Shown one piece after another: positions 8,342 to 56,642 of a stretch of 64,000 nt of DNA (positions are counted from its first letter, which is position 1; each line of letters opens with the position of its first letter). Where the stretch lies: assembly GCA_016187025.1 (NCBI GenBank), contig JACPKM010000001.1, positions 107,188-171,187 of the forward strand. The letters run 5' to 3'. The notes under the pieces were generated by a model. It was not told the DNA's origin and searched no databases. It worked only from the letters and a program-made list of their open reading frames with translations. Position numbers and translations under genes: made by a program. Origin of the DNA: Candidatus Daviesbacteria bacterium (GTDB lineage Bacteria > Patescibacteriota > Microgenomatia > Daviesbacterales > UBA10151).

Positions 8342-9140
8342 TTAGGTTTCAATTTCAATATCTAAATTTGGAACTTTACCATACCCTTGCAAGGCGGCAA
8401 TGAATCTTTCACCAAAATCTACCGATTGAATTAAAACCTCAGGATTTCCAGCCTTCTCAAGCAACCATTCCCCAGTATCCGTTTCTTTGTCCGTTCCATA
8501 GTGATATGAGTAATTCGTAAAAACAATAGCATTTGAAGGTGATGGCTTACCCTTTGTGGCAAAAACGGCTGCATCTCGCATTTTCGTAATAGCACCTACC
8601 CAAGGAACATCCTCTGGGCGTGCATTAGGTGAAAGAGGTAGGTTCATGTCAATAAACACAATAAATGGTTTTCCTATCATCCGCTGTTTAAGTGCGTGTT
8701 TATATAGTTTTAACACACTGAATCGGAACTCTCGTTCTTTGTTGAACTTCCCCCCTATGTGCAATACACCCTCTCGCTCTTTACTCTTAACCTCAACAAC
8801 AATTCCCTCTTTCGTTTCTGGGTGAGTAGCTATAAATTCCGAATGTTTCATCTGCTTTTTGGTATGGATAAATGCGGCTTCCTAATGCCCACACTTTCTT
8901 GCCCTTAAAGACGATTGGTTGAACAAAATCTATAAATATGCCCGACTGTCGCAATATATACCTTCTCTCAACCTGTTCTGCTTCGATTTTACGCATCATT
9001 TCTTCCATCTCTGGTGTTGGCTTCTCTATTTTGGTAACTTTAGGCACACCATACGGGAAACCACCCATTAGGTAATGACATTTCTTATATTTCTTACCGC
9101 TATTACACGGACAGGGATCGTTTCTGCCTATCTTTGACAT
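8342..9140 (-). pseudogene. disrupted paralog of the SEC-C-motif protein at 26899..28098 (internal deletion/frameshift)
   Basis: ORF 8793..9140 matches the N-terminus (SEC-C zinc motif [13 protein letters not shown]) of the 399-aa protein. ORF 8342..8851 matches its C-terminal ~165 aa in another frame; the middle is missing. Confidence 0.7.
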
Positions 9141-11807: not shown

Positions 11808-11811
11808 AGCT

Positions 11812-11895
11812 GCTGCATTATATCAAATTCATGTCATTTTGTCAATTTAACGTGAATTATAGCCTTTTGCGATATAAATTCACGGTATTTGCTCG
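11812..11895. repeat. direct repeat copy 2 (degenerate Fic promoter region)
   Basis: See 8127..8215. Confidence 0.6.
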
Positions 11896-12031
11896 GCCGA
11901 CAGGACTTATTCAGAAACCGAGAAATAGAGTTTGGGTTTAATTTACAGGACATTCAAACAATCTATTCTATCTTCAATTTATCATTACAACATTAGTTTT
12001 AGGAAAGGAGGATATCAAAAATTGATATATC

Positions 12032-12520: not shown

Positions 12521-12597
12521 TAACGTATTATACTAGGTTCTAAATCAAATTAAGAAACTACGCATAGGTGTTGAGGCTAATTGAAGCTAAAAATATA

Positions 12598-12673
12598 TGC
12601 TCCCCCAGCCTTGGATTACTATACCAGAAAATAGCTATATTTCTATCCTGCAAACATTCCAAAATCTAAGCTG
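12598..12673. repeat. cassette-junction repeat (long form), partner at 14963..15038
   Basis: ~80% identity over ~76 nt: 'tgctcccccagccttggattac(t/a)atacca...tttc.....t.ca.acattccaaaa(t/c)ctaag'. Confidence 0.65.
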
Positions 12674-12691
12674 CATAACTTTCTCCAGACT

Positions 12692-13300
12692 TTATCTTAA
12701 CTCCTTTTTCATTTCTTCAAATTCTTTCTTACCTATTTCTCCACGAGCATACCTCTCTTTGAGAATATCCAGTGTTGACCTACCTTCATCGCCTCTTTTA
12801 CTCCAACCGCCAAGGTAACGAATAAGGGCAATGACGCCTAAAATTAAGAGAATCCAGAAAGCAAGCATAGTTACCCAGCCTAAAATGCCAAAACCTCCCC
12901 AGCCGCCCATCATATTACCAAAACCTGTTCCCATCATAGGCATAAAGCCCACCCCGCAACCGCTATTTCTTTTACCCATAGCAATGTGCATCTGTTTCTC
13001 TCCCTCCTCGCCCATCATGCTTATCATCATCTGGTTCATGGCAGCATGTCTTTGAGTATCACCAATTGATTGACCCATAAAATACTCACCCAGCACCGCA
13101 TAACTATCATCAGTAAAGTCTTTGCACTCAATTTGTTTTGCTTGGAACTTTTCCCAAATTGCTTTTCCCTCAACTTCTTCACGGGCAGTATGGTCATCAG
13201 ATGGGGATGTTGCTTGTGCCCGCACTGACTCTCCACTTATTATAAAAACCAAAAGAAAGAAGGCTGCTATCAGAGTTGTGCTTAGATAACCGGCATGCAT
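12692..13300 (-). CDS. SHOCT-domain membrane/secreted protein
   Basis: Signal/TM N-terminus, Met/Gly-rich middle, C-terminal 'LDILKERYARGEIGKKEFEEMKKEL' SHOCT-like motif. Confidence 0.5.
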   Translation of the reverse strand: MHAGYLSTTLIAAFFLLVFIISGESVRAQATSPSDDHTAREEVEGKAIWEKFQAKQIECKDFTDDSYAVLGEYFMGQSIGDTQRHAAMNQMMISMMGEEGEKQMHIAMGKRNSGCGVGFMPMMGTGFGNMMGGWGGFGILGWVTMLAFWILLILGVIALIRYLGGWSKRGDEGRSTLDILKERYARGEIGKKEFEEMKKELR

Positions 13301-14963: not shown

Positions 14964-15038
14964 GCTCCCCCAGCCTTGGATTACAATACCACCAAATTCC
15001 TTTATTTCCATGCTTCAGACATTCCAAAACCTAAGTTA
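14963..15038. repeat. cassette-junction repeat (long form) copy 2
   Basis: See 12598..12673. Confidence 0.65.
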
Positions 15039-15151
15039 GATTGGAGAAATGAATCACTTCGTGCTTCTTGCTTCGCAATGTGACAAAGGTGGGAAGAAAT
15101 TAAAGCCAGCTCTCCAAAGGGGAGGATTTTAGACAAATTACAGGGTTATAG

Positions 15152-16056: not shown

Positions 16057-16119
16057 ACATACTGCGTAAGTCCTGGAATTACTATACCTACAGATAAAGG
16101 ATGCCGGGAACTCAAGGAA

Positions 16120-18849: not shown

Positions 18850-19086
18850 GATTGGTTCGATTACACGCACCACAAGTCTGAGGGATGAGCCCTCAGGCTC
18901 AGATCTTCGATTCCAAGATCGTCACTCAGATTCGAAGAACTCGAAGAGGTGGGTTAGCTTGGCACCTTCTCGGCTCCCCAGACCTTGAATTATTATACCC
19001 CAAAGTTTTAGAGGCTTTCAGCAATAAAAGCTATGTTGGAGAATTGAGGCAAAGGTGGCTGGAGATTAAAAAATTACAATTCAACT

Positions 19087-23258: not shown

Positions 23259-24071
23259 ATGAACAATTTATCTGAGGACTTAAAAGAATTTCTGCGATGG
23301 ATCAAGATGCAAAGTGATGAATATATCAATGAGCATCAAGAGTTGATCCTTGTAATGTTAAGGCTCATCACAGACACACAATTTCAGTTTGAAATACAAA
23401 AACTAAGATCAGAATATAATCTCCCCAAGAAATGGTATTTAGGAACTAAAAATGTTGATTTTTATAAAAAGATACACAAGGAGTATGAAGCTTGGCACAA
23501 AAGAAATACAAAAGAAGTACTTACAAAAGACCACCCAAAAATTTTAGAAATATGTAAACAGTTTAGGATTGACTCTTCTCGCTACGGTTTTTTTGTTTCA
23601 AACTATCTATATTTTAGAGACCTGAGACCACTTAAACCTTTAACCAATAATACATTTCTATCAAACGAGGAGTACCGCTATAAGGCACGTTTAGAGACTG
23701 CACAGGACGAAACAATGCCCTACTTAACAAAAGGGTATATTCGCTTCTTTCAAGATACAACACCTGAACAGCTCTTGCGGTTTGTTGAGGAAAATAAGGA
23801 TAAGATCAGATTGATCCGAAGCTGGTTACCCCTTTACCCACACACAAAGAAATTTAGCCTATTCAAAAGAGATATCCAAATATTTATACTCCATCTGCTC
23901 AACTATAAAACACCCAAAATATCAGATATTATTGCGGAAGAAAATCTATCCCAAGATGAAAACTCAAACATTGACTCTATTGAAAATAAATTCACACTCG
24001 AAGAAGCAGCTATTAGAGAAATTGTTAGAGATTTAACCCACCGCATAAAAAACCTCAAAAATATAATCTAA
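23259..24071 (+). CDS. hypothetical protein (270 aa)
   Basis: ORF. Confidence 0.5.
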   Translation: MNNLSEDLKEFLRWIKMQSDEYINEHQELILVMLRLITDTQFQFEIQKLRSEYNLPKKWYLGTKNVDFYKKIHKEYEAWHKRNTKEVLTKDHPKILEICKQFRIDSSRYGFFVSNYLYFRDLRPLKPLTNNTFLSNEEYRYKARLETAQDETMPYLTKGYIRFFQDTTPEQLLRFVEENKDKIRLIRSWLPLYPHTKKFSLFKRDIQIFILHLLNYKTPKISDIIAEENLSQDENSNIDSIENKFTLEEAAIREIVRDLTHRIKNLKNII

Positions 24072-25279: not shown

Positions 25280-26787
25280 AAAATTGTTATGTTTATTTAA
25301 GAGTGTCAACAGATGAGCAAGCCAATGAGGGTTTTTCTTTAGATAATCAAAAGAGGTCCTGTTTGGATTATGCTCAAATGTGTGGCTACCACGTTAAGAA
25401 AGTCTTTGAAGATGGAGGTAGAAGCGGTAAAACTACAGACCGGCCTGCGTTTCAAGAATTACTCGCCTTAATTCAAGAAAATTCTGTAGATGCAGTTATT
25501 ATTTATAAAATAGACCGTTTTGCCAGAAATGTAGGTGATTTTTCAAATATAAGAAAGCAATTCAAGCAATTAGGGATTAAGCTGCTTTCAGTATCCGAGA
25601 ATGGAGATGTAACAGAGGGTTTAATAGGCAATATCTTTGCTTCAGTTGCAGAATGGGAGTCAGAGGTTAATGGACAAAGGACAAAAGATGCTTTAATGCA
25701 GAAGTTTAGAGAGGGCTGGCAGCCCACTCCTCCCCCAATAGGCTATATAAGCATTGGCGGTGACAGGGAGAGAAAAACTTGCGAACCAGATCCTTATGTT
25801 GCACCGATTATCAAAGAGTTATATGAGTTATACGCTACTGGTAATTATTCAATCCTAGAATTACAAGAGTGGTTAAGCGATAAAAACCTTATTTCTAAAA
25901 CTGGTACAGGATTAGGGCATAGTGTAATTTGTAATATTCTCAATAACCCCTTTTATTACGGTTTGATCCGATGGAGGGGAGAATCTAAGATCGGTAAACA
26001 TATCCCCATTATCACCAGAGAGCTATTTGATACTTGCCAGTATGTTTTAGCCAAGCACAGAAACTTCCTTTTACGAAGGCGTACACACAACTTTCTACTC
26101 AGAGGATTTATTTATTGTGCTGAGTGTGGCCAGCGGTATACTGCTGAATGGCATAAAAACGAGCACAAATTCAAGCATAGAGGCGGTAAAATTGGTTATT
26201 ACCACTGTATAAAACTAGGAAGAAATGGTTGTCCTGCTCCTTATGTAGAAATATCCGAGCTTGAAAAGTTGGTTGAAAAGGAGTTTAAAAACATGCAGTT
26301 TAGCCAGGAGTTTATAGATGCGGTAGTCAGAAAGACCAGAGAACGCCTTGAAAACAACCGTAAATCGGCTAATGCCGTCAAACAAGGCATGCTTAACCAA
26401 AAAACCGCCTTAGAAACAAAAAGAAATAAGCTGGAAGATGCTTTACTGGATGCAACAATAGACAGGGACACTTTCAAAAGAAAGCACACAGAGATTCATG
26501 ACAAGATTTTGAACTTAGAGGCACAAATTCAAGAAACTGACGCCCAGAGTCAAATAGACATAGATTTGATTGATGAGGTATTAGCTTTTACCAGAAACAT
26601 CTACCAAACATATAAAGATGCTCCAACTTACCTTAAAAGACATTACTTAAGATTCTTTTATGAGAAGCTAATTGTAAGAAATAAAGAAGTTGTTGAGGCA
26701 GTGCCAACACCAATCTTCTTGTCCCTACAAGCTAATCAAGCGGTTATAATAACAGCTTTCAGCTCCCCAGCTCTGAAGTTATTATAG
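25276..26787 (+). CDS. large serine recombinase (resolvase/invertase N-domain + recombinase + zinc-ribbon)
   Basis: 'CYVYLRVSTDEQ' catalytic Ser context; 'IIYKIDRFARN'; Cys-rich zinc-ribbon 'CAECGQRYT...YYHC'; C-terminal coiled coil. Confidence 0.85.
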   Translation: MKNCYVYLRVSTDEQANEGFSLDNQKRSCLDYAQMCGYHVKKVFEDGGRSGKTTDRPAFQELLALIQENSVDAVIIYKIDRFARNVGDFSNIRKQFKQLGIKLLSVSENGDVTEGLIGNIFASVAEWESEVNGQRTKDALMQKFREGWQPTPPPIGYISIGGDRERKTCEPDPYVAPIIKELYELYATGNYSILELQEWLSDKNLISKTGTGLGHSVICNILNNPFYYGLIRWRGESKIGKHIPIITRELFDTCQYVLAKHRNFLLRRRTHNFLLRGFIYCAECGQRYTAEWHKNEHKFKHRGGKIGYYHCIKLGRNGCPAPYVEISELEKLVEKEFKNMQFSQEFIDAVVRKTRERLENNRKSANAVKQGMLNQKTALETKRNKLEDALLDATIDRDTFKRKHTEIHDKILNLEAQIQETDAQSQIDIDLIDEVLAFTRNIYQTYKDAPTYLKRHYLRFFYEKLIVRNKEVVEAVPTPIFLSLQANQAVIITAFSSPALKLL

Positions 26788-26898
26788 AAGGGGTATCAAG
26801 TATATTAAAGACTTTTGAAGATGTTATTGAAATGGGAATAATCAAGGCCAGATGGGAAGAAATTAAAAGAGTCCAGAAGATACCTAACGCTACATGTA

Positions 26899-28098: not shown

Positions 28099-28131
28099 AT
28101 CAATGTTAGAAATTATTATATAATTTACCTT

Positions 28132-28326
28132 ATGGATAATCTCACTTCAGCACAAAGAAGATTATGCATGACACGGATAAGATCCACTAATACAAAAATA
28201 GAGATTCTTTTTAGAAAGTATCTCTGGAGTAATGGATTTAGAGGCTACAGAGTAAAAAGCAAATTGGAAGGCAAACCTGATCTTTACTTCCCCAAAAAAC
28301 AAACAGAGCATCTATTGACACTTTAA
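28132..28326 (+). pseudogene. vsr: Vsr (very-short-patch-repair endonuclease) N-terminal fragment
   Basis: 'MDNLTSAQRRLCMTRIRSTNTKIEILFRKYLWSNGFRGYRVKSKLEGKPDLYFPKKQ' matches the Vsr N-terminus ('RSRNMSRIRSKDTKPE...LW..G.RYR......GRPDIVFP') then stops, against ~150 aa for full-length Vsr. Confidence 0.65.
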
Positions 28327-28372
28327 TGAGGCTGACAGTCTCATTACCCGCATCTTTAATCCTAAATGCTAG

Positions 28373-29971
28373 GTGCTTTTTCTTACAAATTCAGCTATAC
28401 TATGGACATCAAATTCACCTTTTTCTGATATGGATGAGAATATATTACAAGAAGATATTGGGTCGGTTGTAGCAGATGAGTTCTCCCCTACTTTTGATTG
28501 CTTCAGAATAAAAGCGGATGCTAACAAGTATGTTTACCCAGGCACACTTGTTGCAACTCCCATTGATAAAAATCACTTCTTGATAGGTCGCATCAAATCA
28601 TCGTTGGAAGTAAATCCTCATGAAAGCGCTTCTCGTGCAAAAGTTAGAGAGGCATTGGATATCGAGCCAGATTATCCAGAAGAGAAACTTTCGACGAACA
28701 TATACCGTGTGTACGAGGCTGATGTTATTGAAGAAGGAATACTATCCAAAGAAGGTGAAGCAATAAAAATGGAGGTATCTGAACCTTCTGATATGCCAAA
28801 AGCGGGAGCTAGAGTATTTATCCCTACAGAAGAAGTTGTTGCGAATGCAATGGGGTTTTTGAGAGAAGAAGACAAGGCGTTAGTGTTAGGAAGAACAAAA
28901 ATAACCAATGGCGATGAAGATCAAGAAAATCCTAAGAATAACGTTCTCTTAAAACCATCACTAATTCAGAGGCATGTATTTGTTGGTGGCACAACTGGAA
29001 GTGGCAAATCATACGCCACAGGGGTAATTCTTGAAGAAGTTAATAAGTTTAAAATTCCTATAATAATTCTTGATTCGCAGAATGAATATATTGGACTAGC
29101 AGAAGGACTTGGAGGAGTTGTACTCAAGCCTGGAGATGATTATAAGGTCAGACTATCGTCTCTCACTGAAGGAGAAATCCTTGGGCTAGTCCCGACATTA
29201 CCTGAGGTAGGTCGTAATCTATTAGCCTTTACTTTTCTACAGTTAAAAAGAGAGATTATTCGTGGAGAAAGAGGAGGTTTTGGTTTGGACGACATTTTAA
29301 TTGAAATGTCTAATAATGCCCCCTCTCTTCAGGTAAACACAAATAGCCTTCAGATAGCATTACAACGAACTCGTTCCTCACTTGAAAGACATAGATTTTT
29401 AGGTGATGAGACTAACTGGAAAGATTTACTCAGAGATCAACCTGTTGTAAATATCGACTGTGGCGATTTGGATCAACACCAACTACAGCTTGTCATAGGC
29501 GCAACACTCCGAGAACTACAACATTTAAGAAAAAGTGTTGAGATTCCTCCGTATGTTGCAGTTCTAGATGAGGCACATTTACTTGTTCCCGAAGGTGAAG
29601 ATAGTCCTTGTAAACAGGTTATACGAGAAGGAGTAAGGATTGGCAGACATTATGGAATCTGTATGTTTTTAATTACTCAAAGCCCAGTTGATATCGATAA
29701 GAAAACAATTCGGCAATGTAATACTCGATTCATTTTTGCACTGGAGCCAGACCAACTCGAGTCGATTAAGGGCGTACGCGCAGATGCTACAGAAGATATG
29801 TTACAGCGCTTACCTAAAATGCCAGTTGGTACCTGCATATTATCTGGAACTTATGAGACTGTTAAGCATGCAATCCCCATAAAAATTCGCAAGAGGAATA
29901 TTGAATCAGGTGGTAAAACCCCCGATATATTTACAGAAATGACTGAGAAATGGATAAACAAGAAGAAATAA
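28373..29971 (+). CDS. HerA/FtsK-superfamily (DUF87-like) P-loop ATPase with ~190-aa N-terminal domain
   Basis: Walker A 'VGGTTGSGKS', Walker B 'VAVLDEAHLLVP', 'FLITQSP' sensor-like motif; an N-terminal HAS-barrel-like region is plausible. Confidence 0.7.
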   Translation: MLFLTNSAILWTSNSPFSDMDENILQEDIGSVVADEFSPTFDCFRIKADANKYVYPGTLVATPIDKNHFLIGRIKSSLEVNPHESASRAKVREALDIEPDYPEEKLSTNIYRVYEADVIEEGILSKEGEAIKMEVSEPSDMPKAGARVFIPTEEVVANAMGFLREEDKALVLGRTKITNGDEDQENPKNNVLLKPSLIQRHVFVGGTTGSGKSYATGVILEEVNKFKIPIIILDSQNEYIGLAEGLGGVVLKPGDDYKVRLSSLTEGEILGLVPTLPEVGRNLLAFTFLQLKREIIRGERGGFGLDDILIEMSNNAPSLQVNTNSLQIALQRTRSSLERHRFLGDETNWKDLLRDQPVVNIDCGDLDQHQLQLVIGATLRELQHLRKSVEIPPYVAVLDEAHLLVPEGEDSPCKQVIREGVRIGRHYGICMFLITQSPVDIDKKTIRQCNTRFIFALEPDQLESIKGVRADATEDMLQRLPKMPVGTCILSGTYETVKHAIPIKIRKRNIESGGKTPDIFTEMTEKWINKKK

Positions 29972-31554
29972 ATGGCGAATCATTATCTTTTGAGGAAACT
30001 CTATCTAGACTCGAAGCAGAGCGTAGAATTGATCCAATTATTGTCCAAACTGCAGACTACCTCTTAGCGGCTAGTATACTAAGTGGCGAAAAAGAACTCC
30101 TAAAACAAGCACGAGAAGCCCTCATGAAGGAAGATCCTCGAGAGCTATTCTTAAAGTTTATACAAGAGTGCATAAAAGATTTACAGACAGCCCCTAGAGC
30201 AGAGCGCTTTAAATATGCAACTTACTTGAATGATGTGGCAATTATGGGATTGGGTATTTGGCAAGAAGATATTGGTTTAACGGCAACAGGACAAGATGCT
30301 TTGAAATTTACTAGAGAGCCTAATTGGGAAAAGATAAAAGCACACATCAGTGAAGTAGTTTTTGGAGACTATTTTATTGAACAAGTATCAGTTCCAGTTG
30401 ATACCCAAATATGGGGAACCGAATTCCCTTTAAGAATGAGCGCCTGCGATGCCAGTCAACACAGATTTAAACTCAAAGCTCCTTTTAATAAAGCTTTCGC
30501 ATCACCCGTTGTCGTTAATAATGCAGGAGGAACTATTAAGACAAACGAAGTGGAGAAGCGCTGGACGCCAATCGCGGTACCTAAAAATACTGGAGATTAT
30601 GAGGATTGGGTAATTCTTGGTCCTCATGACTACGCCTACATGGAGGACGGAGACTATGAATGGGCAGTTAAATCGTCAATGGATGTAGGTGAATTTTTTG
30701 TAGAGGAGACATTTATTTTTAAACATGGTGGCCTTGCTAAAAAGCCAGATGTCCATTTTAGAGACGGTAGAATATACCCTCAGGATAAGCTCATGAATTG
30801 TAAAATCCAAAATAGGCATGGAGAACTCACACGGCAAGCATTATATAGGATGGTTACAACCTGTAAGACTGCAAATGATTTAAAAATTCTTTACTGCGGT
30901 GTGGCAAAACAGGTAGAGCTTAAAATATTTAGCACAATTATTGATTGGTATATTACCAAAGTGATTGGAAACACTCACTGGAACCCTACAGGAAAAGCCA
31001 TTACTGACTCAGAAATGATTCGATATATGCTGAACTGTGAAGATTTTAGCGCAAGAACATTTAATAAAATCTATGTTACATGCCAGGTTATGAGAAAATT
31101 TGAAGCAGCTTCTAATCTCAATAGAAGAACAAGACAACAAGCTCGCAACGATCTTGATAGTTTAAATCGTGTTCACCATAGTAGAGATATTACAGCAAGG
31201 GATATCGTAGAAGAAGCTTTAAAAGTAAATGTTGTTATGTTTTTTGCCGGACATTCCACAAACGATGAACTTTATATTCCCCGATATGAGTTTGTTATGC
31301 TACCCTTCATGAAGGTAGCGGAAATGAAGAATTATGTACTAAAGGTGTTATCTGCTTTAAGACTCGCTTCTTTTGATGTTGACGAAGACCATTTGCGAGG
31401 TCTTGACGAACCAATCACTACTCTTGTCCCAACCCCTCTTCTCGTTGCCCACGATATAAGCAAAAAAATGGGTGAAGAGTTAGCAGCAAATTTTGCGCAA
31501 AGAACAACAGCAGAATTGATATTGCGTATGAGACAAAAAAAAGATATCGTATAA
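29950..31554 (+). CDS. hypothetical protein (534 aa), translationally coupled to the ATPase
   Basis: Overlaps the ATPase gene by 22 nt; no recognisable family; no NurA 'DGS' motif found. Confidence 0.6.
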   Translation: MDKQEEINGESLSFEETLSRLEAERRIDPIIVQTADYLLAASILSGEKELLKQAREALMKEDPRELFLKFIQECIKDLQTAPRAERFKYATYLNDVAIMGLGIWQEDIGLTATGQDALKFTREPNWEKIKAHISEVVFGDYFIEQVSVPVDTQIWGTEFPLRMSACDASQHRFKLKAPFNKAFASPVVVNNAGGTIKTNEVEKRWTPIAVPKNTGDYEDWVILGPHDYAYMEDGDYEWAVKSSMDVGEFFVEETFIFKHGGLAKKPDVHFRDGRIYPQDKLMNCKIQNRHGELTRQALYRMVTTCKTANDLKILYCGVAKQVELKIFSTIIDWYITKVIGNTHWNPTGKAITDSEMIRYMLNCEDFSARTFNKIYVTCQVMRKFEAASNLNRRTRQQARNDLDSLNRVHHSRDITARDIVEEALKVNVVMFFAGHSTNDELYIPRYEFVMLPFMKVAEMKNYVLKVLSALRLASFDVDEDHLRGLDEPITTLVPTPLLVAHDISKKMGEELAANFAQRTTAELILRMRQKKDIV

Positions 31555-31556
31555 GT

Positions 31557-32612
31557 ATGGGCGATTTTGCCAATTCTGGATTCCGATATCCTTCAACCCG
31601 TTATACTGGTAGTAAGCGTAGATTCCTAGAGTGGATCAAAGAAAATTCCGATACTATCAAATTTGATACCGTTTTGGATTTGTTTGGAGGAACTGCAAGC
31701 GTAAGCCTACTGTTTAAAAGATATGGAAAACAAGTTTCTTATAACGACTTTTTGGCCTCAAATCAAATAGTTGCTAAGGCAATTGTAGAAAATGATGGCA
31801 TTACTATTTCAGATAAAGACCTAGCGTCGGTATTTTCGAAAACCCAGAAAAGATATCCTAATTTTATTCAAAACACCTATAAAAATGTTTTTTTTCTGGA
31901 TGAGGAGAATGCATGGCTCGATCAAGCAATCACTAATATTAACAAGATCGACAATGAGTATAAAAGAGCTATCCTTATGGCAAGCCTGTTCCAGGCCTGT
32001 CTAGCAAAACGTCCATTCAATCTTTTTCATAGAGCCAATCTATATATACGCACTAACGACGTAAAACGGACTTTTTGTAATAAAACAACCTGGGAAAGAT
32101 CATTTGAGGAGTTGGTAAGCAGATATGTTAAGGAATACAACAATGCAGTATTCTCAAATAAAAGAAATAACAGAGTAATTGGTGGTTATAACGCAGCGAA
32201 ATCTCCAAACGGCGTTGACTTAGTTTATATGGACCCTCCCTATTTCTCTGAACACATGACTCAAGGGACTAACTATCTAGCCTATTATCATTTTCTAGAA
32301 GGTTTAGCAGATTACAAAAACTGGAAAAACCGCTTAGGTAAAGATACAGGGAAAGTAAAAAGAATGGAAGACTCAGAAGAAGTTTATAGCTTTACTAGAA
32401 AGGATAGGGTCTTAGAAACATTTGAAAAACTTATAAAGAGATTTCAGCATACACAGCTTATTATCTCTTATCAAAGCAATGGAATCCCTTCAAAAGAACA
32501 AATCATTGAGATGTTGCACAATGGAGGCAAAAAGGTGAAGGTTTATGAAAAACCACATAAGTATGCCTTAAGTAGAAGACAAACTAACGAATTATTATTT
32601 GTTGCAACTTAA
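31557..32612 (+). CDS. Dam-like (D12 class, alpha-group) N6-adenine DNA methyltransferase
   Basis: N-terminal 'YTGSKRR...DLFGGTASVSL...YNDF' AdoMet region; catalytic 'VYMDPPY'; starts 3 nt after the upstream gene. Confidence 0.8.
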   Translation: MGDFANSGFRYPSTRYTGSKRRFLEWIKENSDTIKFDTVLDLFGGTASVSLLFKRYGKQVSYNDFLASNQIVAKAIVENDGITISDKDLASVFSKTQKRYPNFIQNTYKNVFFLDEENAWLDQAITNINKIDNEYKRAILMASLFQACLAKRPFNLFHRANLYIRTNDVKRTFCNKTTWERSFEELVSRYVKEYNNAVFSNKRNNRVIGGYNAAKSPNGVDLVYMDPPYFSEHMTQGTNYLAYYHFLEGLADYKNWKNRLGKDTGKVKRMEDSEEVYSFTRKDRVLETFEKLIKRFQHTQLIISYQSNGIPSKEQIIEMLHNGGKKVKVYEKPHKYALSRRQTNELLFVAT

Positions 32613-36835: not shown

Positions 36836-37681
36836 ATGAAGATTGAGAAAAAATATAGGTTTATTGATATCCAGGGAAGTGATTTTGGCAAACTAACCGA
36901 TATTGCCTATCTTGTTGATAATTTATATTTTCTAGATAAAGTTGAGGAAATAAGAGAAAAACTCGGTCTGACTTTTGAGTACCCCCTGTCCAAAACAGAT
37001 GAGGAAAAGATTGACAAGATGTTTGAATACAAAAATAAAGAGCTAAATGAAAACCTTTCTAAAGAAGCTGAAAGAATTAGAAAACTTTTTAAAATGCCGC
37101 CCCATTTTAGAGAAGTCATACAGATTGCAATTATTTATGGAAAAATTAATGACTTTAATTACTCAAAAGCATACTTGGAAAAACAAGAAATTACACCTAC
37201 TAATGATCCTAACGAAGTACCGGATATTAAATACTGCATTGTTATCCATTCAGGTACAGGAATTGAAGATATTAAGAAAGTATTTAGGAAATTTCAGGAT
37301 GAAGTAAGAATAAACTTCAAAGCATCAGAAGAAGAAAAGCACAGGTACAATTTTGGTTATTGGCTTGAATTTGGTTTGACCAGACCAATGGATCCAAAAA
37401 CCAGTATCACTGATCTCCGCCCCTTATATCATCTTAGAAGGAATGGGATGAAGCCTTTGGAAATTGCACTAAAAGATTTAAGAATATCTAAAAAACAATA
37501 TAAAGAGGCTTTAGAGGGATGTAGGCTGAATAATAAAGGCAGACTGGACAATAAAGAGAAAAGTAAAAGATATGATGAATGTGATGCTTTAATTGTAAGG
37601 GTTCAACAAAGAAGAGATAGTATTAAGTCCCTTATAAAGCGATATATTGACTTTCTTAGTGCTCCAAATTCATTATTGTAA
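36836..37681 (+). CDS. hypothetical protein (281 aa)
   Basis: ORF. Confidence 0.5.
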   Translation: MKIEKKYRFIDIQGSDFGKLTDIAYLVDNLYFLDKVEEIREKLGLTFEYPLSKTDEEKIDKMFEYKNKELNENLSKEAERIRKLFKMPPHFREVIQIAIIYGKINDFNYSKAYLEKQEITPTNDPNEVPDIKYCIVIHSGTGIEDIKKVFRKFQDEVRINFKASEEEKHRYNFGYWLEFGLTRPMDPKTSITDLRPLYHLRRNGMKPLEIALKDLRISKKQYKEALEGCRLNNKGRLDNKEKSKRYDECDALIVRVQQRRDSIKSLIKRYIDFLSAPNSLL

Positions 37682-37884
37682 ACACTTAACTCCTTCCTAT
37701 CTACAACCCATACTTTTCTAATTTCAGGATCTAAAATAAACCCAAATGCTGGGAAATATTGAAAACAAATCCAAGATTGACTATCAAAAGCAGATTGAAC
37801 TTGCAGCGGAACAGCTAGCTCAAATCTTAATCCAGCAGGTCATAAGTAAAAATAACCAGATTAAAAACAAAATTAATAATAAAT

Positions 37885-38136
37885 ATGGAGAATCAAACAG
37901 ATAATTTTTCAACATCAGACATAAAAATTGCAAGCTATCTTCTAAGTAAAGGCATATCACTTATTGGGGTCGAGAGACCACAGGTCAGAAAAGTTATTTT
38001 TGTCTTCGAAAAGTCCAATTTAATCACACAATTAATCCAAGATTATTTATCAGATAAAGCAATCGTAAATCCGAGAGTTTTGTTTGAAAGTTTTGCAAAC
38101 CTGAAAAGTATTATTTTTAGAGAAATAGGGATTTAA
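37885..38136 (+). CDS. DUF5659-like small protein (paralog of 24290..24547)
   Basis: See 24290. Confidence 0.55.
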   Translation: MENQTDNFSTSDIKIASYLLSKGISLIGVERPQVRKVIFVFEKSNLITQLIQDYLSDKAIVNPRVLFESFANLKSIIFREIGI

Positions 38137-38150
38137 AGACAAGTAAAGAA

Positions 38151-38372
38151 TTGATAATAAATATGCATAATACCAAATTAAGCCCATTCCAAAATAAACA
38201 AATTAACAAAAACCATACAACCTTGGTGCGGATAGATGCCGAGTTGCATAGATTACTGAAAATAAAGGCAGTGGCAGAAAGAACCACTATCAGGACTCTT
38301 ATAGAAGGTGCTCTGGCAGATGTATTGGAAGTGAAATCTGATAAGAAACAGGGAGTTGAGAATAATGATTAA
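38151..38372 (+). CDS. RHH-like small DNA-binding protein (paralog of 24875..25018)
   Basis: See 24875. Confidence 0.5.
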   Translation: MIINMHNTKLSPFQNKQINKNHTTLVRIDAELHRLLKIKAVAERTTIRTLIEGALADVLEVKSDKKQGVENND

Positions 38373-39216
38373 AAATTTAGCAGTCCAATATGAAAATCCC
38401 AGTACTGATTACTTCAAGGTTAGGAATAGTTTTGCGGAGGCACTTGCGCGTATTAACACCTCTGAATATGAAACAAGGTTGTTGTGGGTGATAATACGCA
38501 AAACCTGGGGTTGGAATAAAGATGAAGACTATATTTCAGTAACTCAATTCGAGAAGGCAACAGGTATTAACAGAAGCAATGCACACCCTTCTCTACTCAA
38601 ACTTGAAGAAAAGAAAATTATCATAATTAATAGAACAGGTCATATTAATAAGTATAGGATCAATACCAATGTTAATGAGTGGGTGCACAAGGAAGGGAAA
38701 AATGTTATTCCCATAAATAATGTTATTCCAGCAGATAATATTATCCCTCCAACTAATACCCCGTTATTTGAGGACATAACAACTTCGTTATCTCAAGAGA
38801 CCATAACAAAAGAAACAGAAAAGACAATTAAACAAAACACAAGTAATATAAATAGCGACAGTATTAAAAATTCATTACCAGTGAAAACAGAACAACCTAA
38901 TAAACAGATCCCTCTTCAGAAACTGGTTTCTTATTATAAGCAGCTCTACAAAGGTAAATTTAACCATGAACCAGTCATTAGCAGTATGAGTTGGGGGAAA
39001 TGGGGAAAGTTGCTGAAAACAAAACTTGAACAAGGATATTCCTTAAAAGAAATTGCCATCCTGCTTCAAACTTTTGCTAAATCAAAAGAATCAGATCCAA
39101 AAAGACTAGGTTTTGACCTTGGCGCCTTCTTTTCCGATTATGTCTTCAATAAAATGCAAGCAATTAAAAGCAAGAGGGTTGATGTAGCCACGGAAGGAAA
39201 ATATGATAAATATTAA
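38356..39216 (+). CDS. replication initiation / phage-replisome-organiser-like protein
   Basis: N-terminal 'RLLWVIIRKTWGWNKDEDYISVTQFEKATGINRSNAHPSLLKLEEKKII' wHTH resembles Rep / replisome organiser N-domains. Confidence 0.5.
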   Translation: MRIMIKNLAVQYENPSTDYFKVRNSFAEALARINTSEYETRLLWVIIRKTWGWNKDEDYISVTQFEKATGINRSNAHPSLLKLEEKKIIIINRTGHINKYRINTNVNEWVHKEGKNVIPINNVIPADNIIPPTNTPLFEDITTSLSQETITKETEKTIKQNTSNINSDSIKNSLPVKTEQPNKQIPLQKLVSYYKQLYKGKFNHEPVISSMSWGKWGKLLKTKLEQGYSLKEIAILLQTFAKSKESDPKRLGFDLGAFFSDYVFNKMQAIKSKRVDVATEGKYDKY

Positions 39217-40069
39217 ATCTAACCTGCCTATTTGTAGTTTGTGTGGTAAACAGATTAATTCCCTTGGTTTTGAGGATAGAATTATTAGGAATCACCGAGA
39301 TAAACCAGATGAATTTGGATTGTGGAATTTAGATGCACAGCTTGATATTAAAGAATTTGAAAAAGATATTCACTTAAAGTGCCGCATTCGGTGTGCCAGA
39401 TATTATCGTGTTGAGTTGAAACGTAAATGGCTTTCAACAGAGCTGTTTGAGGTTACTAACGATAACAGAACCGCATATGAAGCCCTAGAAAAAATGAAGG
39501 GGATGAATTATGAAGAGATGAAATCTAACGGTATATACCTTTACGGGCAGCCTGGAACAGGTAAAACACATTTACTTACTGATCTTTGCCGCACCATCAC
39601 TGACCGACATACCAATCTGGCTAATATATCATGGGTAAACACTTCAGATATGCTTATAAATCTCCGTTCTAGCTTCGGCAAAAAATATGAATATAGGGAA
39701 GAAACTGAATCAGAAAAGATCCTAAAAAAATTAAAAGCCAGATTTTTATTTTTAGACGATCTGGGCACAGAAGCTGCCACAGAGTGGGCAAAGGAAATTC
39801 TCTATGGAGCTATAAATTATAGGTATGATGAACAGCTTCCACTCTTTGTAACCAGCAACTTATCTCCTAAAGAATTGGAAGACAAAATGGGGGATAAATT
39901 TACTTCGAGAATAGTTGGAATGTGTAAGCCTGTAAGGATAGCAGGAGAAGATCGGCGTTTAGATGCCAAGGAACAAAATCCTAATATAGCATTGCCCATA
40001 TTCTCATATCAAATGGCATATTGGAATCCAGAGGAAAACGTACCTGAAAATAAGGCAGGTAGAAATTAA
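39203..40069 (+). CDS. DnaC/IstB-like AAA+ ATPase (helicase-loader-like)
   Basis: Walker A 'GQPGTGKTHL', Walker B 'FLFLDDLGTE'. Confidence 0.7.
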   Translation: MINIKSNLPICSLCGKQINSLGFEDRIIRNHRDKPDEFGLWNLDAQLDIKEFEKDIHLKCRIRCARYYRVELKRKWLSTELFEVTNDNRTAYEALEKMKGMNYEEMKSNGIYLYGQPGTGKTHLLTDLCRTITDRHTNLANISWVNTSDMLINLRSSFGKKYEYREETESEKILKKLKARFLFLDDLGTEAATEWAKEILYGAINYRYDEQLPLFVTSNLSPKELEDKMGDKFTSRIVGMCKPVRIAGEDRRLDAKEQNPNIALPIFSYQMAYWNPEENVPENKAGRN

Positions 40070-40084
40070 AGAAAGGGGGTTTAA

Positions 40085-40240
40085 GTGTCTAAATATATTT
40101 TGCTAGTAAAGAAAAGCGGGCAAGTTATCAAATTAGCATCCAAGGATTTCCCCATACAAAGAAGAGGAGGGGTAGGCGTAAAAGCAGTTATCCTTGCTAA
40201 GGGTGATGCGGTAGTAGCGGCAGTTGCACTTGAAAGTTAA
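40085..40240 (+). CDS. small protein (51 aa) resembling a single GyrA C-terminal beta-propeller blade
   Basis: GTG start with strong RBS 'aaagggggt'; 'RRGGVGVKAVILAKGDAVVAAVAL' resembles the gyrase CTD repeat. Confidence 0.3.
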   Translation: MSKYILLVKKSGQVIKLASKDFPIQRRGGVGVKAVILAKGDAVVAAVALES

Positions 40241-40285
40241 TGTATCAATTTAAAAAATACAAAGTATGGAAGGAGGTGAGCTTAT

Positions 40286-40534
40286 TTGAAAATTTTAACT
40301 TTTAGCAGAATTTCTTCTCAAGATCAGGAGAAATTGGCTTTACAACAAAGTCATAAACAGGATGTTGAGGTGGAAAACGAAAATGGATGTACCTACCTGG
40401 TTTGTCATAAGTGTGATGGTTTTTGGGTGGTGGACACGCTCTCTAGATGGATCAGATACCCTAAAGGAGAGTTGAGAGAAAGAAAACGCTACCCAAAACC
40501 AAGATGTCCATTTTGTGATAAAGTCGGAGTTTAA
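40286..40534 (+). CDS. zinc-ribbon small protein
   Basis: CHKCDG...CPFCDK. Confidence 0.45.
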   Translation: MKILTFSRISSQDQEKLALQQSHKQDVEVENENGCTYLVCHKCDGFWVVDTLSRWIRYPKGELRERKRYPKPRCPFCDKVGV

Positions 40535-40657
40535 TATTTACTATGAGGTATATATAATAAATTAGCTAATAAAAATAGAGCCTCCAGGCCTGAATAACCA
40601 AGGGAAGCTCTATTACGCTTAGGTGAGTCGTTTTGAGGCGGACTACGCCCTATTTGT

Positions 40658-40825
40658 ATGAACACTATACCAAAAATAAATAAAAATATCCAAGAACAAG
40701 ATGCTGAATTGATGAATGACAAAAAATTCATCTTTATGGTTTGCAACAGATGTGGATGGGCTGGGATAGCAACCACTTTTTCAAAGAAATACCTTTCAAG
40801 ACCAAAATGTCCATCTTGTAAATAA
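40658..40825 (+). CDS. zinc-ribbon small protein (55 aa, paralog of 40286..40534)
   Basis: Not in the ORF track; CNRCGW...CPSCK. Confidence 0.4.
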   Translation: MNTIPKINKNIQEQDAELMNDKKFIFMVCNRCGWAGIATTFSKKYLSRPKCPSCK

Positions 40826-40833: not shown

Positions 40834-42372
40834 ATGACAACAACAAAAAAGGCAATAATTTATACGAGAGTTTCGGACCCAGGCCAGGTCAGCGGTCTAT
40901 CTTTAGATGTCCAAAGGGAGAAGTGTTCTAAATGGGCAAAAGATCACGGCTTTCAGGTAGTAGGCATATATGAGGACGGTGGCAAAACAGGAACAAAAAC
41001 TGTCGGTCGAGATGGCCTTGAAGATGTCATTATTCACTGTCAGAGAGAAAAAATAGACGTAGTACTGGTGATTGATACAGACCGAATTGCGAGAAACGAA
41101 TTTGATCACTTTTCAATCCGAAATGAGTTGAAAAAACAGGGCACATTACTTATTGCCATAAATCAACCGCTAATTGATGGTTCGGCAGAGGGGTTGTTGA
41201 TGGATGGAATGCTGGCTTCAATAAATGCTTTTTATAGCAGGTTAACTGGACGTAAAGTAAGAAAGAGTTTGGAGAAAAAATGGGAGGATGGTATTTATCC
41301 TTCATGGGCCCCCCTAGGTTATATCAATGTTAATAAAGGCACTGAAGAGAAACCTCACCGCGTAATTGAGATTGATCCTAAAACTGGACCGCTTATTAAA
41401 ATGCTTTTTAAAATGTATGCAACAGGCAGTCATTCGTACCTTTCCCTTTCCCGAATAATGTTTAAAAAAGGATTAACTGCAAGAAATGGGAAAGTGCTTT
41501 CCGACAGCAGCTTGCAACAGATATTGTCTTGCACCTTTTATTACGGGTGGATGAAATGGGGCGGTATGGAAAAATGGGGTATCCATAAACCATTAATCAA
41601 TAAGACATTATTTGATCAATGCCAGTTTACAGCAGCAAAGCACCGGCAATTTCTTGTCCGCCAGAGGAAGCATGATTTCCTTTTAAGAGGAGTTGTCTTG
41701 TGCTCAAAGCATGATTCAAGGTTTACGGCAGAATGGCATTATTATCACCACGATCATTACAAAAAACAAAAAATCGGCTATTACCATTGCCACTTTCAGG
41801 GAGGCTGCTCTGGTTCTTATATCGAGGTAAATGAGCTTGAAAAGAGAGTTGCTAATCTTTTCAAAAACTATCAATTTGACCAGGAGTTTATTGATCTGGT
41901 AAGACAAAAGGTTAGAGATTATTTAAATGATGGAAGAAAGACCCTTGAGTCTCAAAGACAGGCAATTATTAACAGACGGAAGGTAGTGGAAGATAAAAGG
42001 AACAATTTAGAAGATTTGCTGGTAGCAGGAACAGTTGAAAGGGAGACTTATCAAAGACAGCATATCAAGCTCCATGGGGGAATAGAAGTTTTAGACAATG
42101 AATTGGCAGAGTTAGAACATCAGCGGAGTATTGATGTAACGCTGATAGATGAAATTTTGGCGCTAAGCAGAGATATTTATAAGACTTACTCAACCGCCCC
42201 CACTTTCCTCAAAAGACATTACCTAAGATTCTTCTTTGAGGCTGTCTATGTTGATGAAAAAAGAATCACTAAGGTGGTTGAAACACCGCTGTTTGCAACC
42301 TTGCGCAGGCAACACCACATTATAATAAGGACCAACTGGCTCCCCCGGGAGGATTCGAACCTCCAACCTTGA
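40834..42372 (+). CDS. large serine recombinase (paralog of 25276..26787)
   Basis: 'IIYTRVSDPGQ' Ser context, 'VIDTDRIARN', zinc ribbon; the 3' end overlaps the tRNA-Asn 3' exon by ~36 nt. Confidence 0.85.
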   Translation: MTTTKKAIIYTRVSDPGQVSGLSLDVQREKCSKWAKDHGFQVVGIYEDGGKTGTKTVGRDGLEDVIIHCQREKIDVVLVIDTDRIARNEFDHFSIRNELKKQGTLLIAINQPLIDGSAEGLLMDGMLASINAFYSRLTGRKVRKSLEKKWEDGIYPSWAPLGYINVNKGTEEKPHRVIEIDPKTGPLIKMLFKMYATGSHSYLSLSRIMFKKGLTARNGKVLSDSSLQQILSCTFYYGWMKWGGMEKWGIHKPLINKTLFDQCQFTAAKHRQFLVRQRKHDFLLRGVVLCSKHDSRFTAEWHYYHHDHYKKQKIGYYHCHFQGGCSGSYIEVNELEKRVANLFKNYQFDQEFIDLVRQKVRDYLNDGRKTLESQRQAIINRRKVVEDKRNNLEDLLVAGTVERETYQRQHIKLHGGIEVLDNELAELEHQRSIDVTLIDEILALSRDIYKTYSTAPTFLKRHYLRFFFEAVYVDEKRITKVVETPLFATLRRQHHIIIRTNWLPREDSNLQP

Positions 42373-42623
42373 TCTTACAAGTACCCCCGGTTTTCATCGG
42401 GGCTTGGACTATCTCTTAGTCATAATCTATAAATAGATCCCAGACTCCAGGTATATAGTCTCTACACATTTACCACATTCAGTTTGCATGAACGTGGACT
42501 TAGCTCGAGATTACCCTTCAACAAGCTCAGGGCTTCCCCGAATTAGCCTGGTTACATTTCAAAGTTTCCCTTGAAAGCTGCATTATTTTACAGGATCCCG
42601 CTCTACCATTGAGCTACAGGGGA
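42337..42623 (-). tRNA. tRNA-Asn(GUU) interrupted by a ~212-nt group I intron (42378..42589) in the anticodon loop
   Basis: 5' exon TCCCCTG-TA-GCTCAATGGTAGAGC-G-GGATC-CTGT matches E. coli tRNA-Asn stem and loop. 3' exon TAA-GATCA-AGGTT-GGAGGTTCGAATCCTCC-CGGGGGA-G-CCA. Intron shows P1 (exon CUGU / IGS GCAG with U.G at the splice site), terminal G, and R/S elements 'GAGACTATA' and 'AAGAGATAGTCC' that form P7. Confidence 0.75.
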
Positions 42624-42736
42624 ATGTTAATGTACGCTTGGTATTTTACCACCCACCAAAGCTGAAATCCAGCTATATTCCCAATTGGGAATATTAGGGA
42701 TATTCGGGAAATTAGGGAAGTGGGGAAAGTAAGTAT

Positions 42737-43825
42737 TTATTCAAGATAATCGCGCAGTTTTTTGGCTCGGGTGGGGTGTTTGAGCTTTCTGATAGCTTTT
42801 GCCTCAATTTGACGGATACGCTCTCTGGTTACCCCAAACTCTTTCCCTACTTCCTCAAGTGTTCTTTGCTTGCCATCCTCCAATCCAAACCTGAGCTGCA
42901 AAACCCTTTTTTCTCTTGGTGACAGCGAATCTAGCACTTCATCCAAATGACCTTTTAAAAGCTCTCTGGTGGCTGCTTCATCTGGTTGCAAACCTTGATC
43001 TGCTATAAAATCACCCAGATGAGAATCCTCTTCATCCCCAACCGGAGTCTCTAAAGATGTAGGTTCTTGGGAAACTTTTACTATTTCTCTTGCTTTTGAA
43101 GGGTCTATACCTAACACTGAGGCTACCTCCTCGGGAGTAGGTTCTCTTCCCAGCTCTTGCATTAACTGTCTTTGAGTTCTATTAAACCTGTTTATAGTCT
43201 CAACCATATGCACCGGAATACGGATAGTTCTTGCTTGATCAGCAATAGCCCTGGTTATTGCCTGTCTAATCCACCAGGTAGCATAGGTTGAAAACTTATA
43301 ACCTCTACGCCAATCGTACTTATCAACTGCCCTCATCAAACCGATATTTCCTTCCTCTATTAAATCAAGCAGAGACATCCCCCTACCTACATATTTTTTG
43401 GCAATAGATACAACCAATCTTAAATTTGCACTGATAAGCTTATCCCTGGCTCTTTTTTCATTTTTTTCTGCCCTTTTTGCAAGGTCTATTTCTTGTACAG
43501 CTGTTAAAAGAGGAATCTTTCCAATATCCCTTAAATATTGCCTAACAGGATCTGTTACTGAACCTTCTTCTAAAGTTGTAAGCATTTCTAGCTCTTTTTC
43601 TAACTCTGTAGTAGTTTTACCTTCTGTTTCCAGCTCTTCTGCAGTAGTTTCAAATACATCAATACCTTCATCGATTAGGCCAGTAAAAAACTGGTCAAGC
43701 CCTTCAATGTTATCTTCCGGCTTGGGAAAAACCTGCAGGATTTCTTCTTGGGTAACAAATCCTCTTTCCCGCCCAAGCTTCATTATTTTTTTTACATCTA
43801 AGTTTGTTTGCTTCTTTGCTGCCAT
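42737..43825 (-). CDS. rpoD: RNA polymerase sigma factor RpoD (short, no region 1.1)
   Basis: Regions 2-4 conserved ('[54 protein letters not shown]'). Confidence 0.9.
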
Positions 43826-56245: not shown

Positions 56246-56642
56246 TGGTGGAGATGGAGGGTTTTGCACCCTCGTCCAAGAAAACATATTCAAAAACCTC
56301 TACAAGCTTAGCTAGTTAATATTTACTTATTGGTTGTAACCAACCAGCAGGAAAACCAATAAGTGATTGAATTATCTTAAAACCTAAAGGATCAACCAAC
56401 ACCTTTAAAGTAAGCATCCTAACTTTGTATTTACCTTAGCCTTCCGTTAGAAAGAGAAGATTCTAAGATATTGCGTTAAGCAGCAAAAGCGTAGTTTGGT
56501 TGCCCAAAGAGCGCTTGTGAAGCTCTAGCAAAAACGGAATTTGATTTGCCGTTTATGTTTTGAAACCACATTTTTACGGGTTGAGGTTTCCTTCCCGGCT
56601 TGCAGTTTTTAAAGTGCCAACCTGTCGATGCGATACATCCCC
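56246..56642 (-). ncRNA. ssrA: tmRNA (ssrA)
   Basis: 5' GGGGATGTATCGCATCGACAGG (cf. consensus GGGG..GGAUUCGACGGG). 3' tRNA-like GGACGAGGG-TGCAAAA-CCCTC-CATCTCC-ACCA with acceptor pairing to the 5' end. Internal tag frame ends ...QPNYAFAA-TAA. Adjacent to smpB. Confidence 0.85.

Follow-up and report, generated by a model that had tools for sequence, protein, structure and literature searches.

A 212-nt group I intron splitting the tRNA-Asn(GUU) gene of a putative Patescibacterium, with a convergent large serine recombinase gene overlapping the tRNA 3' end

Group I introns that interrupt tRNA genes of Patescibacteria at what has been called the "unusual position 35/36" were described by Nakagawa et al. 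(2026) from 95 complete Patescibacteria genomes (PMC13011429). In those genomes, the hosts of 35/36 introns were tRNA-Asn(GUU) in 15 cases and tRNA-Asp(GUC) in three, and lengths ranged from 184 to 894 nt (PMC13011429). One tRNA-Asn intron (GCA_016700035.1) and one tRNA-Asp intron (GCA_001029755.1) were found to self-splice precisely in vitro, and splicing was abolished by a G-to-C mutation of the terminal nucleotide (PMC13011429). Patescibacteria tRNA introns nearly all belong to subgroup IA, with none in IC, and standard tools either miss the 35/36 genes or miscall them as tRNA-Thr(UGU) with an intron at 33/34 (PMC13011429). Here we analyze a 64-kb stretch of DNA (the window, 37% G+C) that carries a tRNA-Asn(GUU) gene split by an intron of 212 nt, together with the gene for a large serine recombinase that converges on the tRNA and overlaps its 3' exon. 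The intron is a further example of the published, experimentally validated class of 2025-26 and no discovery in itself, and we focus on how it compares with its relatives and on the putative mobile element beside it.

The tRNA gene lies on the minus strand at 42623..42337 and comprises exon 1, the intron, and exon 2, which together give a canonical spliced tRNA of 75 nt (Table 1). Exon 1 contains the 5' strand of the acceptor stem, the D arm, the 5' strand of the anticodon stem, and loop positions 32-35 (CUGU), and exon 2 supplies U36, A37, and A38, the 3' strand of the anticodon stem, the variable loop, the T arm, the 3' strand of the acceptor stem, G73, and an encoded CCA. ARAGORN identifies the spliced 75-mer as tRNA-Asn(gtt) with the anticodon loop CUGUUAA and, when introns are permitted, returns tRNA-Asn (gtt) i(35,212) for the genomic sequence, which places the insertion between positions 35 and 36. 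The split gene escaped both default ARAGORN and the Rfam tRNA model, which detected seven other tRNA or transfer-messenger RNA (tmRNA) genes in the window. The spliced tRNA has U1-A72 and G73, hallmarks of tRNA-Asn, and is 79-81% identical to the spliced tRNA-Asn of a Patescibacteria metagenome-assembled genome (MAG), L001, and of a Microgenomatia genome; it is 67% identical to an intron-less tRNA-Asn of Falkowbacteria that is likewise found downstream of rpoD.

The intervening sequence matches the Rfam group I model (RF00028, Intron_gpI) at 42599..42385, scoring 69.3 bits where the gathering score is 50 (E 1.7e-15) and covering model positions 1-253 of 253. Its helices follow the order P1-P2-P3-P4-P5-P6-P7-P3'-P8-P7'-P9, with no P7.1/P7.2 insertion, that is, without an extra hairpin between P7 and P3'. 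The internal guide sequence GCAG (42581..42578) pairs with exon CUGU, and the J8/7 segment AAGAG directly precedes the 3' strand of P7, AUAGUC. In the Rfam alignment the 3' strand of P3 was drawn on GUCUGG, which we replaced with CCUGG (42451..42447) on the basis of covariation. An unusually long J8/7 was likewise considered and dropped, as P8 is simply extended (AGUC/GACU plus AUCUA/UAGAU). An earlier reading of this DNA, made from its letters and open reading frames (hereafter the original prediction), had described the split tRNA-Asn(GUU) with coordinates and a 212-nt length that proved exact to the base. It had likewise placed the insertion between 35 and 36, paired GCAG with exon CUGU through a U.G at the 5' splice site, ended the intron in a G (42378), and built P7 from two conserved elements (GACUAU/AUAGUC), all of which agree with the ARAGORN call, the spliced loop, and the homologs described below. 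The covariance-model search that it had proposed for the group I assignment is the Rfam match just given.

Support for the folded structure comes from an alignment of 51 homologous introns, drawn from the compact lineage described below and taken with short exon flanks, in which the window copy is the first row. From this alignment RNAalifold recovers the anticodon stem, P1, P2, P3, P4, P5, P6, P8, and P9, with double compensatory changes in 32 of the 52 predicted pairs; P7 is not drawn because it is pseudoknotted with P3. P7 was then added and pairs were counted on the complete structure; the controls were the same structure with partners slid by one to three columns and 500 shuffles. Standard pairs fill 95.3% of cells, against 38-49% with slid partners, and the covariation score is 0.489, against 0.07-0.15 in the slid controls. 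No shuffle of the 500 reached the observed value for four of the five measures, and 14 of 500 did so for the count of further pair types. Compensatory changes are present in P2, P3, P5, P6, P8, and P9. In P1, four pairs, including the U.G, are invariant in all 51 homologs, and the fifth covaries (CG, GC, AU, UG). P4 and P7 (GACUAU/AUAGUC in 51 of 51) are invariant, so both helices are present and uninformative for covariation, and the invariance of P7 is partly due to a search pattern that overlaps it. The window copy has every family-invariant column, as follows from its place in the alignment, and a change from G-C to G.U in P4 is its sole departure from the near-invariant core columns inspected.

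Comparison with the published introns, using the sequences in Table S3 of PMC13011429, gives crude identities over an alignment of about 190 columns. On this measure, the two tRNA-Asp(GUC) introns of Microgenomatia (GCA_001029755.1, 196 nt; GCA_030583725.1, 184 nt) reach 66% identity, and they share with the window intron the 35/36 site, a CUGU/GCAG P1 with U.G, a compact form, and the lack of a P7.1 hairpin. Several core blocks are near-identical (AGGCTAATTCGGGGAA, GGTAATCYCGAGCTAA, GTAAATGTGTAGAGACTATATACCT, and AGATAGTCC). The window intron differs from these relatives in its host, tRNA-Asn, and in longer P5, P6, and P8 helices, giving 212 nt against 184-196 nt. The published tRNA-Asn(GUU) introns (e.g., GCA_016700035.1, 234 nt, and GCA_016700135.1, Microgenomatia) have the same host tRNA, position, phylum, and P1 logic, and most copies lack a homing endonuclease, but they are only 47-57% identical to the window intron. 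In most of those inspected, as in the L001 ortholog, an extra hairpin separates the 5' strand of P7 from P3'; the window copy does not have it, and a Paceibacteria copy (GCA_030583765.1) lacks it as well.

The original prediction had instead taken the Azoarcus tRNA-Ile intron, of subgroup IC3, as the standard of comparison. IC3 introns, including that of Azoarcus and those of cyanobacterial tRNA-Leu(UAA), do resemble the window intron in being small, free of an open reading frame (ORF), located in a bacterial tRNA anticodon loop, and preceded by a 5' exon that ends in a U paired to G. Their typical sites are 33/34, 34/35, and 36/37, whereas the window intron interrupts 35/36 and would not belong among them, and the Nostoc tRNA-Leu intron, at 49% identity, is among the lowest of the comparisons made. 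The Azoarcus site is 36/37. That of the tRNA-Leu intron is 34/35 (PMC13011429). The nearest relatives are the Patescibacteria 35/36 introns, whose subgroup in the literature is nearly always IA. A near-record small size, also claimed at first, did not hold up: the relatives span 171-238 nt and the shortest published length is 184 nt, which makes 212 nt ordinary.

The compact form is widespread. Metagenome contigs were scanned for the exact 18-mer TGTAGAGACTATATACCT, which returned more than 120 hits, and the analysis covers 80 listed loci. Splice sites were accepted if P1 placed a G across from the final U, the intron ended in G, and the anticodon stem was restored, and ARAGORN was run on the product. 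The host was tRNA-Asn(GTT) at 41 of these loci and tRNA-Asp(GTC) at 17, all with the insertion at 35/36 and introns of 171-238 nt, and the guide sequence was always GCAG pairing with CUGU. Splice logic gave no host tRNA at 20 of the 80 loci, some of which are truncated. Among the matches listed, the closest intron is that of L131, a 208-nt intron in tRNA-Asn with 82% identity. The sequences indicate that this compact intron lineage is common in uncultured bacteria and occupies both host genes. Separately, two loci (L088 and L150, a human gut metagenome contig) have the 18-nt core within a tRNA-Leu(taa) that ARAGORN reports with a 284-nt intron, i(36,284).

The occurrence of one lineage in genes for both tRNA-Asn and tRNA-Asp raises the question of exchange. 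The intron may have moved from a tRNA-Asp(GUC) gene into this tRNA-Asn gene, or in the reverse direction, by reverse splicing at the common CUGU context, and would then have displaced, or arrived ahead of, the P7.1-bearing type that the closest relative has. Such a transfer would add to the explanation that we favor for the locus and is no alternative to it. It is consistent with the mixed hosts and constant GCAG/CUGU pairing of the metagenome loci, and with the greater identity of the window intron to Microgenomatia tRNA-Asp introns (66%) than to published tRNA-Asn introns (47-57%) or the L001 ortholog (53%), all on the crude alignment described above. Conversely, with RpoD proteins that share only 68% identity, the window and L001 come from hosts that are not closely related, and the two introns may have independent vertical histories. 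We see the case for transfer as evenly balanced.

L001 (DASYZL010000006.1) provides the best match to the window RpoD among species-representative genomes, with other groups of the Candidate Phyla Radiation (CPR) among the hits. In the window, rpoD (42737..43825, minus strand) has the tRNA-Asn gene 113 nt downstream of it and dnaG upstream. L001 has the layout seen in the window: rpoD, a tRNA-Asn(GTT) with an intron at 35/36, and a convergent recombinase. Its tRNA-Asn (11223-11512) contains a 218-nt intron that bears P7.1, scores 107 bits with Rfam, and is the ortholog referred to above. Since this intron is of the P7.1 type and only 53% identical, the orthologous tRNA-Asn genes of two distant relatives hold different intron lineages. 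The L001 recombinase (11501-12992) is frameshifted and terminates 13 nt inside the tRNA. In the window, the interval from the rpoD stop codon to the tRNA 5' end (42624-42736) gave no sigma-70-type promoter match; rpoD and the tRNA may share a transcript, or the promoters of the host may be unlike the consensus used.

The recombinase that meets the tRNA is a protein of 512 aa with Resolvase (PF00239, E 7e-28) and Recombinase (PF07508, E 1e-10) domains and a Zn_ribbon_recom domain just below the cut-off (PF13408, E 8e-5), and it matches the phrog_95 integrase (E 3.4e-82). As had originally been noted, its ORF overlaps the 3' exon by 36 nt: the final 36 nt (42337..42372), encoding the last 12 codons and the tail ...WLPREDSNLQP-stop, are antisense to exon 2. 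The Resolvase, Recombinase, and zinc-ribbon architecture is that of phage-type large serine integrases of the phiC31 and Bxb1 class, and, as with known integrative elements that recombine into a tRNA 3' end and restore it, the integrase is located at the edge, abuts the tRNA 3' end, and leaves the tRNA intact. The classical elements that target tRNA genes rely on tyrosine integrases, and a long direct repeat remains after their insertion. The putative element of the window differs from these in having a serine recombinase, a common core of about 7-8 nt, and an attachment (att) site that apparently lies within the 3' end of the recombinase ORF. The genes behind the recombinase include replication functions (Table 1), and Pfam and PHROG scans found no virion genes in this cargo (36836..40825); from its gene content, the putative element is a small integrative replicon and not a typical prophage. 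Each recombinase element also has a protein of about 270-300 aa without a Pfam or PHROG hit, followed by DUF5659 (window 36836-37681 and 23259-24071; L001 14675-15583). The L001 protein is 25% identical to the window copy at 23259..24071, and the protein may have an element-specific function.

The same junction recurs elsewhere. In tblastn searches with both recombinases of the window, homologs with 22-65% identity align through residue 512 and run against an intron-bearing tRNA-Asn, as observed in at least eight metagenome loci (L126, L158, L084, L100, L148, L098, L135, and L140) as well as in L001. This recurrent overlap supports integrative elements that would target the tRNA 3' end, and it strengthens the original suggestion of an integrative element at this tRNA. 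Downstream of the tRNA in many loci there is an arm motif (TTATAATAAG, GGTATATTAAG, or GGTTAGATTAAG) placed 9-11 nt from GCTCC, the antisense of the tRNA 3' end; a post hoc regular expression finds it at 14 of 41 tRNA-Asn loci and one of 17 tRNA-Asp loci. Loci without the motif, such as L131, L109, L089, L090, and L110, look like unoccupied sites from their sequence; one of them, L090, has a partial recombinase tblastn hit elsewhere in the locus that does not adjoin the tRNA. We also considered whether the element brings the intron along and rejected this: the intron of L126, which gives the best recombinase match (65%), is not the one most like the window intron, and L131, whose intron is closest (82%), shows no recombinase hit within the 2.8 kb covered. 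Our literature search found no report of an association between a serine recombinase and the 3' end of tRNA-Asn.

As an alternative, the overlap could be incidental, the recombinase ORF merely having no stop codon before the convergent tRNA and no element having integrated. In keeping with this, the tRNA 3' end has no direct repeat, the distal end of an element was not found, and the composition profile has no GC step at the junction. The first of these points bears on an observation that the original prediction had named as telling against it, a partial att duplicate of the tRNA: no att-type duplicate of the 3' exon is present in the window at three or fewer mismatches. For large serine recombinases, a few bases of common core suffice. 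No long duplicate is therefore expected, and its absence is uninformative against integration. An incidental overlap would not account for the recurrence of the junction in at least nine independent loci with recombinases of 22-65% identity, or for a conserved arm motif whose spacing from the tRNA end is fixed and which is more frequent at tRNA-Asn than at tRNA-Asp loci; the neighboring genes, moreover, are plasmid- or phage-type replication genes. We consider incidental overlap unlikely.

To the left of the tRNA, about 30 kb of accessory genes are split by repeats in the same orientation, whose first bases, GCTCCCC(C), are antisense to the 3' end of tRNA-Asn and lead into an arm of the AGCCTTGGATTACTATACC type. 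The repeats at 12599, 14964, 18973, and 26762 look, by their sequence, like att scars of successive insertions, and no att-like arm copy was found in the window to the left of 12599. A second recombinase within this region is paralogous to the first, being 43% identical to it and 66% identical to the L001 enzyme. The arm-spacer-core layout at the tRNA-side junction is repeated at the 3' end of this paralog, in L001, and in several metagenome loci. The imperfect palindrome that overlaps the stop codon of the paralog (26741..26795) would be the appearance expected of an intact phage-type attachment site (attP) of a serine recombinase. A tRNA-side junction and an attP-like palindrome are both seen, and the distal junction was found for no single element. 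The accessory genes between 12.6 and 42.3 kb encode toxin-antitoxin pairs, a HerA-like ATPase, a D12 methyltransferase, Vsr, ImmA/XRE proteins, a nuclease, and a SEC-C protein.

From these observations, two separate processes can be proposed. In the transcript, the intron would fold into the standard group I core, with P1 formed from exon CCUGU and UGCAG and U35.G marking the 5' splice site. P3-P8 would build the core, and P7 would provide the guanosine pocket. Exogenous guanosine would attack after U35, and the terminal G (42378) would then enter the pocket, after which ligation of the exons would restore the loop CUGUUAA. Such guanosine-dependent self-splicing of the window intron would be expected by analogy with its relatives, in which it was demonstrated in vitro. 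At the other side of the locus, the tRNA 3' end would serve as the attachment point of a replicon with a large serine recombinase, an O-like initiator, and a DnaC-like loader. If the attP of this family lies in the last codons of the recombinase gene, the integrated ORF would read 36 nt into exon 2 in antisense. Crossover would occur within GCTCC, the end of the acceptor stem plus the discriminator (roughly tRNA positions 70-74), and the element would supply the extreme 3' end of the tRNA so that the gene stays intact. Through repeated insertion, elements and remnants would have accumulated in tandem between about 12.6 kb and 42.3 kb.

We regard it as highly probable that the locus combines a functional, intron-split tRNA-Asn(GUU) of Patescibacteria (CPR) with a small serine-recombinase replicon attached at the tRNA 3' end. 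Several points weigh against this view. Splicing of the window copy is argued from sequence, structure, and covariation, and the Patescibacteria assignment is built on an RpoD match of only 68% together with synteny and the intron lineage. The scan for tRNA-Asn spans 64 kb of the genome, and a second, intron-less tRNA-Asn may lie elsewhere. On the side of the element, the distal junction was not found in L001 or in the metagenome loci that bear large serine recombinases, these loci being too short or the junction not recognizable in them, and no empty site from a close relative was recovered. The regular expression for the arm motif was composed after the data had been seen. No recombinase relatives were confirmed in viral contigs. 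Finally, the tandem second recombinase and the apparently intact attP within the array are not fully explained by a simple recombination of attP with a bacterial attachment site (attB).

If a second tRNA-Asn gene did exist in the genome, the intron could be a decayed, non-splicing relic and the locus a tRNA pseudogene. The Rfam score of 69 bits, against 107 bits for the L001 ortholog, and the restriction of the window to 64 kb of the genome would fit such a relic, but the lower score is attributable to a compact lineage that lacks P7.1. All helices are intact in the window copy, with the G.U in P4 as the only departure in the core columns inspected, and no other intact tRNA-Asn was found by default ARAGORN anywhere in the 64-kb window, the second of the observations that the original prediction had named as telling against it. 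We thus think a relic very unlikely. Even less credible is a tRNA-Thr(UGU) gene with an intron at 33/34 and boundaries moved by two bases, which we reject: ARAGORN and tFind often give this reading for such loci, for several homologous loci here the ARAGORN call is tRNA-Thr(tgt) i(33), and the same Thr/Asn ambiguity is documented in PMC13011429, but these boundaries would end the intron in ...GGUACU and not in G, breaking the terminal-G rule, and would displace from the splice site the U.G that is invariant at U35 in 51 of 51 homologs, while the tRNA-Asn hallmarks, the 79-81% identity to other tRNA-Asn, and the sequenced in vitro products of the relatives, excised at 35/36 (PMC13011429), all oppose it.

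Beyond the functional split tRNA and its attached replicon, a fuller picture can be drawn tentatively, in which we have somewhat less than even confidence as a whole. The elements may constitute an undescribed family of small serine-recombinase replicons of Patescibacteria, specific to the last bases of an intron-bearing tRNA-Asn, with an att site that falls within the recombinase ORF at its 3' end and a C-terminal tail rewritten by tRNA antisense. Its members would form a tandem array of about 30 kb (12.6-42.3 kb) with defense and toxin-antitoxin cargo, beside a compact intron that moved between tRNA-Asp and tRNA-Asn via CUGU. The current understanding of group I introns is unchanged by this locus. 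What the window adds is a compact lineage of the "tRNA-Asp type" in tRNA-Asn, abundant in metagenomes in both host genes, with a hint of intron exchange between the two tRNAs, and a tRNA gene that is at the same time a recurrent docking site for serine-recombinase elements in reduced genomes. There is also a practical aspect: because standard annotation misses the split gene, the genome would appear to lack tRNA-Asn and would be scored as less complete, a point already made in PMC13011429.

Table 1. Coordinates of the split tRNA-Asn gene, its intron helices, and the recombinase-associated features in the window.
Feature	Position	Strand	Details
tRNA-Asn(GUU) exon 1	42623..42590	-	34 nt, TCCCCTGTAGCTCAATGGTAGAGCGGGATCCTGT; ARAGORN on spliced and genomic sequence
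Group I intron, ORF-less	42589..42378	-	212 nt, starts AAAATAATGCAG, ends CTTG; Rfam RF00028, covariation, helix coordinates
P1	CCUGU (exon) 42594..42590 / internal guide sequence UGCAG 42582..42578	-	U35.G at 5' splice site
P2	UUUCAAGG 42576..42569 / CUUUGAAA 42564..42557	-	
P3	CCAGG 42551..42547 / CCUGG 42451..42447	-	
P4	UUCGGGG 42542..42536 / UCUCGAG 42510..42504	-	
P5	GCCCU 42533..42529 / AGGGU 42517..42513	-	
P6	CCACGUUCA 42497..42489 / UGAAUGUGG 42481..42473	-	
P7 (guanosine-binding helix)	GACUAU 42460..42455 / AUAGUC 42412..42407	-	Sequence; 51/51 homologs
P8, two-part helix	5' strand AGUCUGGGAUCUA 42446..42434 / 3' strand UAGAUUAUGACU 42429..42418	-	
P9	CCCCG 42402..42398 / CGGGG 42389..42385	-	
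Omega-G, terminal G	42378	-	Intron end ...CUUG
tRNA-Asn exon 2	42377..42337	-	41 nt, TAAGATCAAGGTTGGAGGTTCGAATCCTCCCGGGGGAGCCA; starts TAAGATCAAGG, ends GGGGGAGCCA; ARAGORN
Large serine recombinase, 512 aa	40834..42372	+	Converges on tRNA; Pfam, phrog_95, ORF list
Putative recombinase arm and crossover core	42305..42346	+	TTATAATAAG and, after 9 nt, GCTCCCCC, antisense to tRNA positions 67-74
Element cargo	36836..40825	+	281-aa protein, DUF5659, ribbon-helix-helix/Arc-like repressor, O-like replication initiator, DnaC/IstB-like loader, small ORFs
Second, paralogous large serine recombinase, 503 aa	25276..26787	+	66% identical to L001 enzyme, 43% to tRNA-side recombinase
attP-like imperfect palindrome	26741..26795	+	TATAATAAC-N24-GTTATTATA, centered on GCTCCCC; overlaps stop codon of second recombinase
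Core and arm repeat, same orientation	26762-26807	+	Begins GCTCCCC(C)
att-like arm copy	18973..19050	+	GCTCCCC AGACCTTGAATTATTATACC
Weak att-like copy	16070-16121	+	
att-like arm copy	14964..15058	+	1 mismatch in 27 nt relative to 12599 copy
att-like arm copy	12599..12693	+	GCTCCCCC, then AGCCTTGGATTACTATACC and about 65 nt more

Some further genes of the window deserve mention. Between the two recombinases, the plus strand at 28027-32612 encodes a Vsr-like endonuclease, a HerA-like ATPase (DUF87 / HerA_C), a 534-aa protein without a Pfam hit, and a D12-class adenine methyltransferase, a predicted cassette resembling a defense island. A SEC-C-motif protein of 399 aa is encoded on the minus strand at 26899-28098; its paralog at 8342-9140 on the same strand is split into two ORFs (8793..9140 and 8342..8851) and appears to be a pseudogene. 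Genes for tRNA-Ser and tRNA-Arg are clustered at 46-54 kb, and a standard one-piece tmRNA (56246-56642, minus strand; Rfam 124 bits) has a long predicted tag, GKSNSVFARASQALFGQPNYAFAA.

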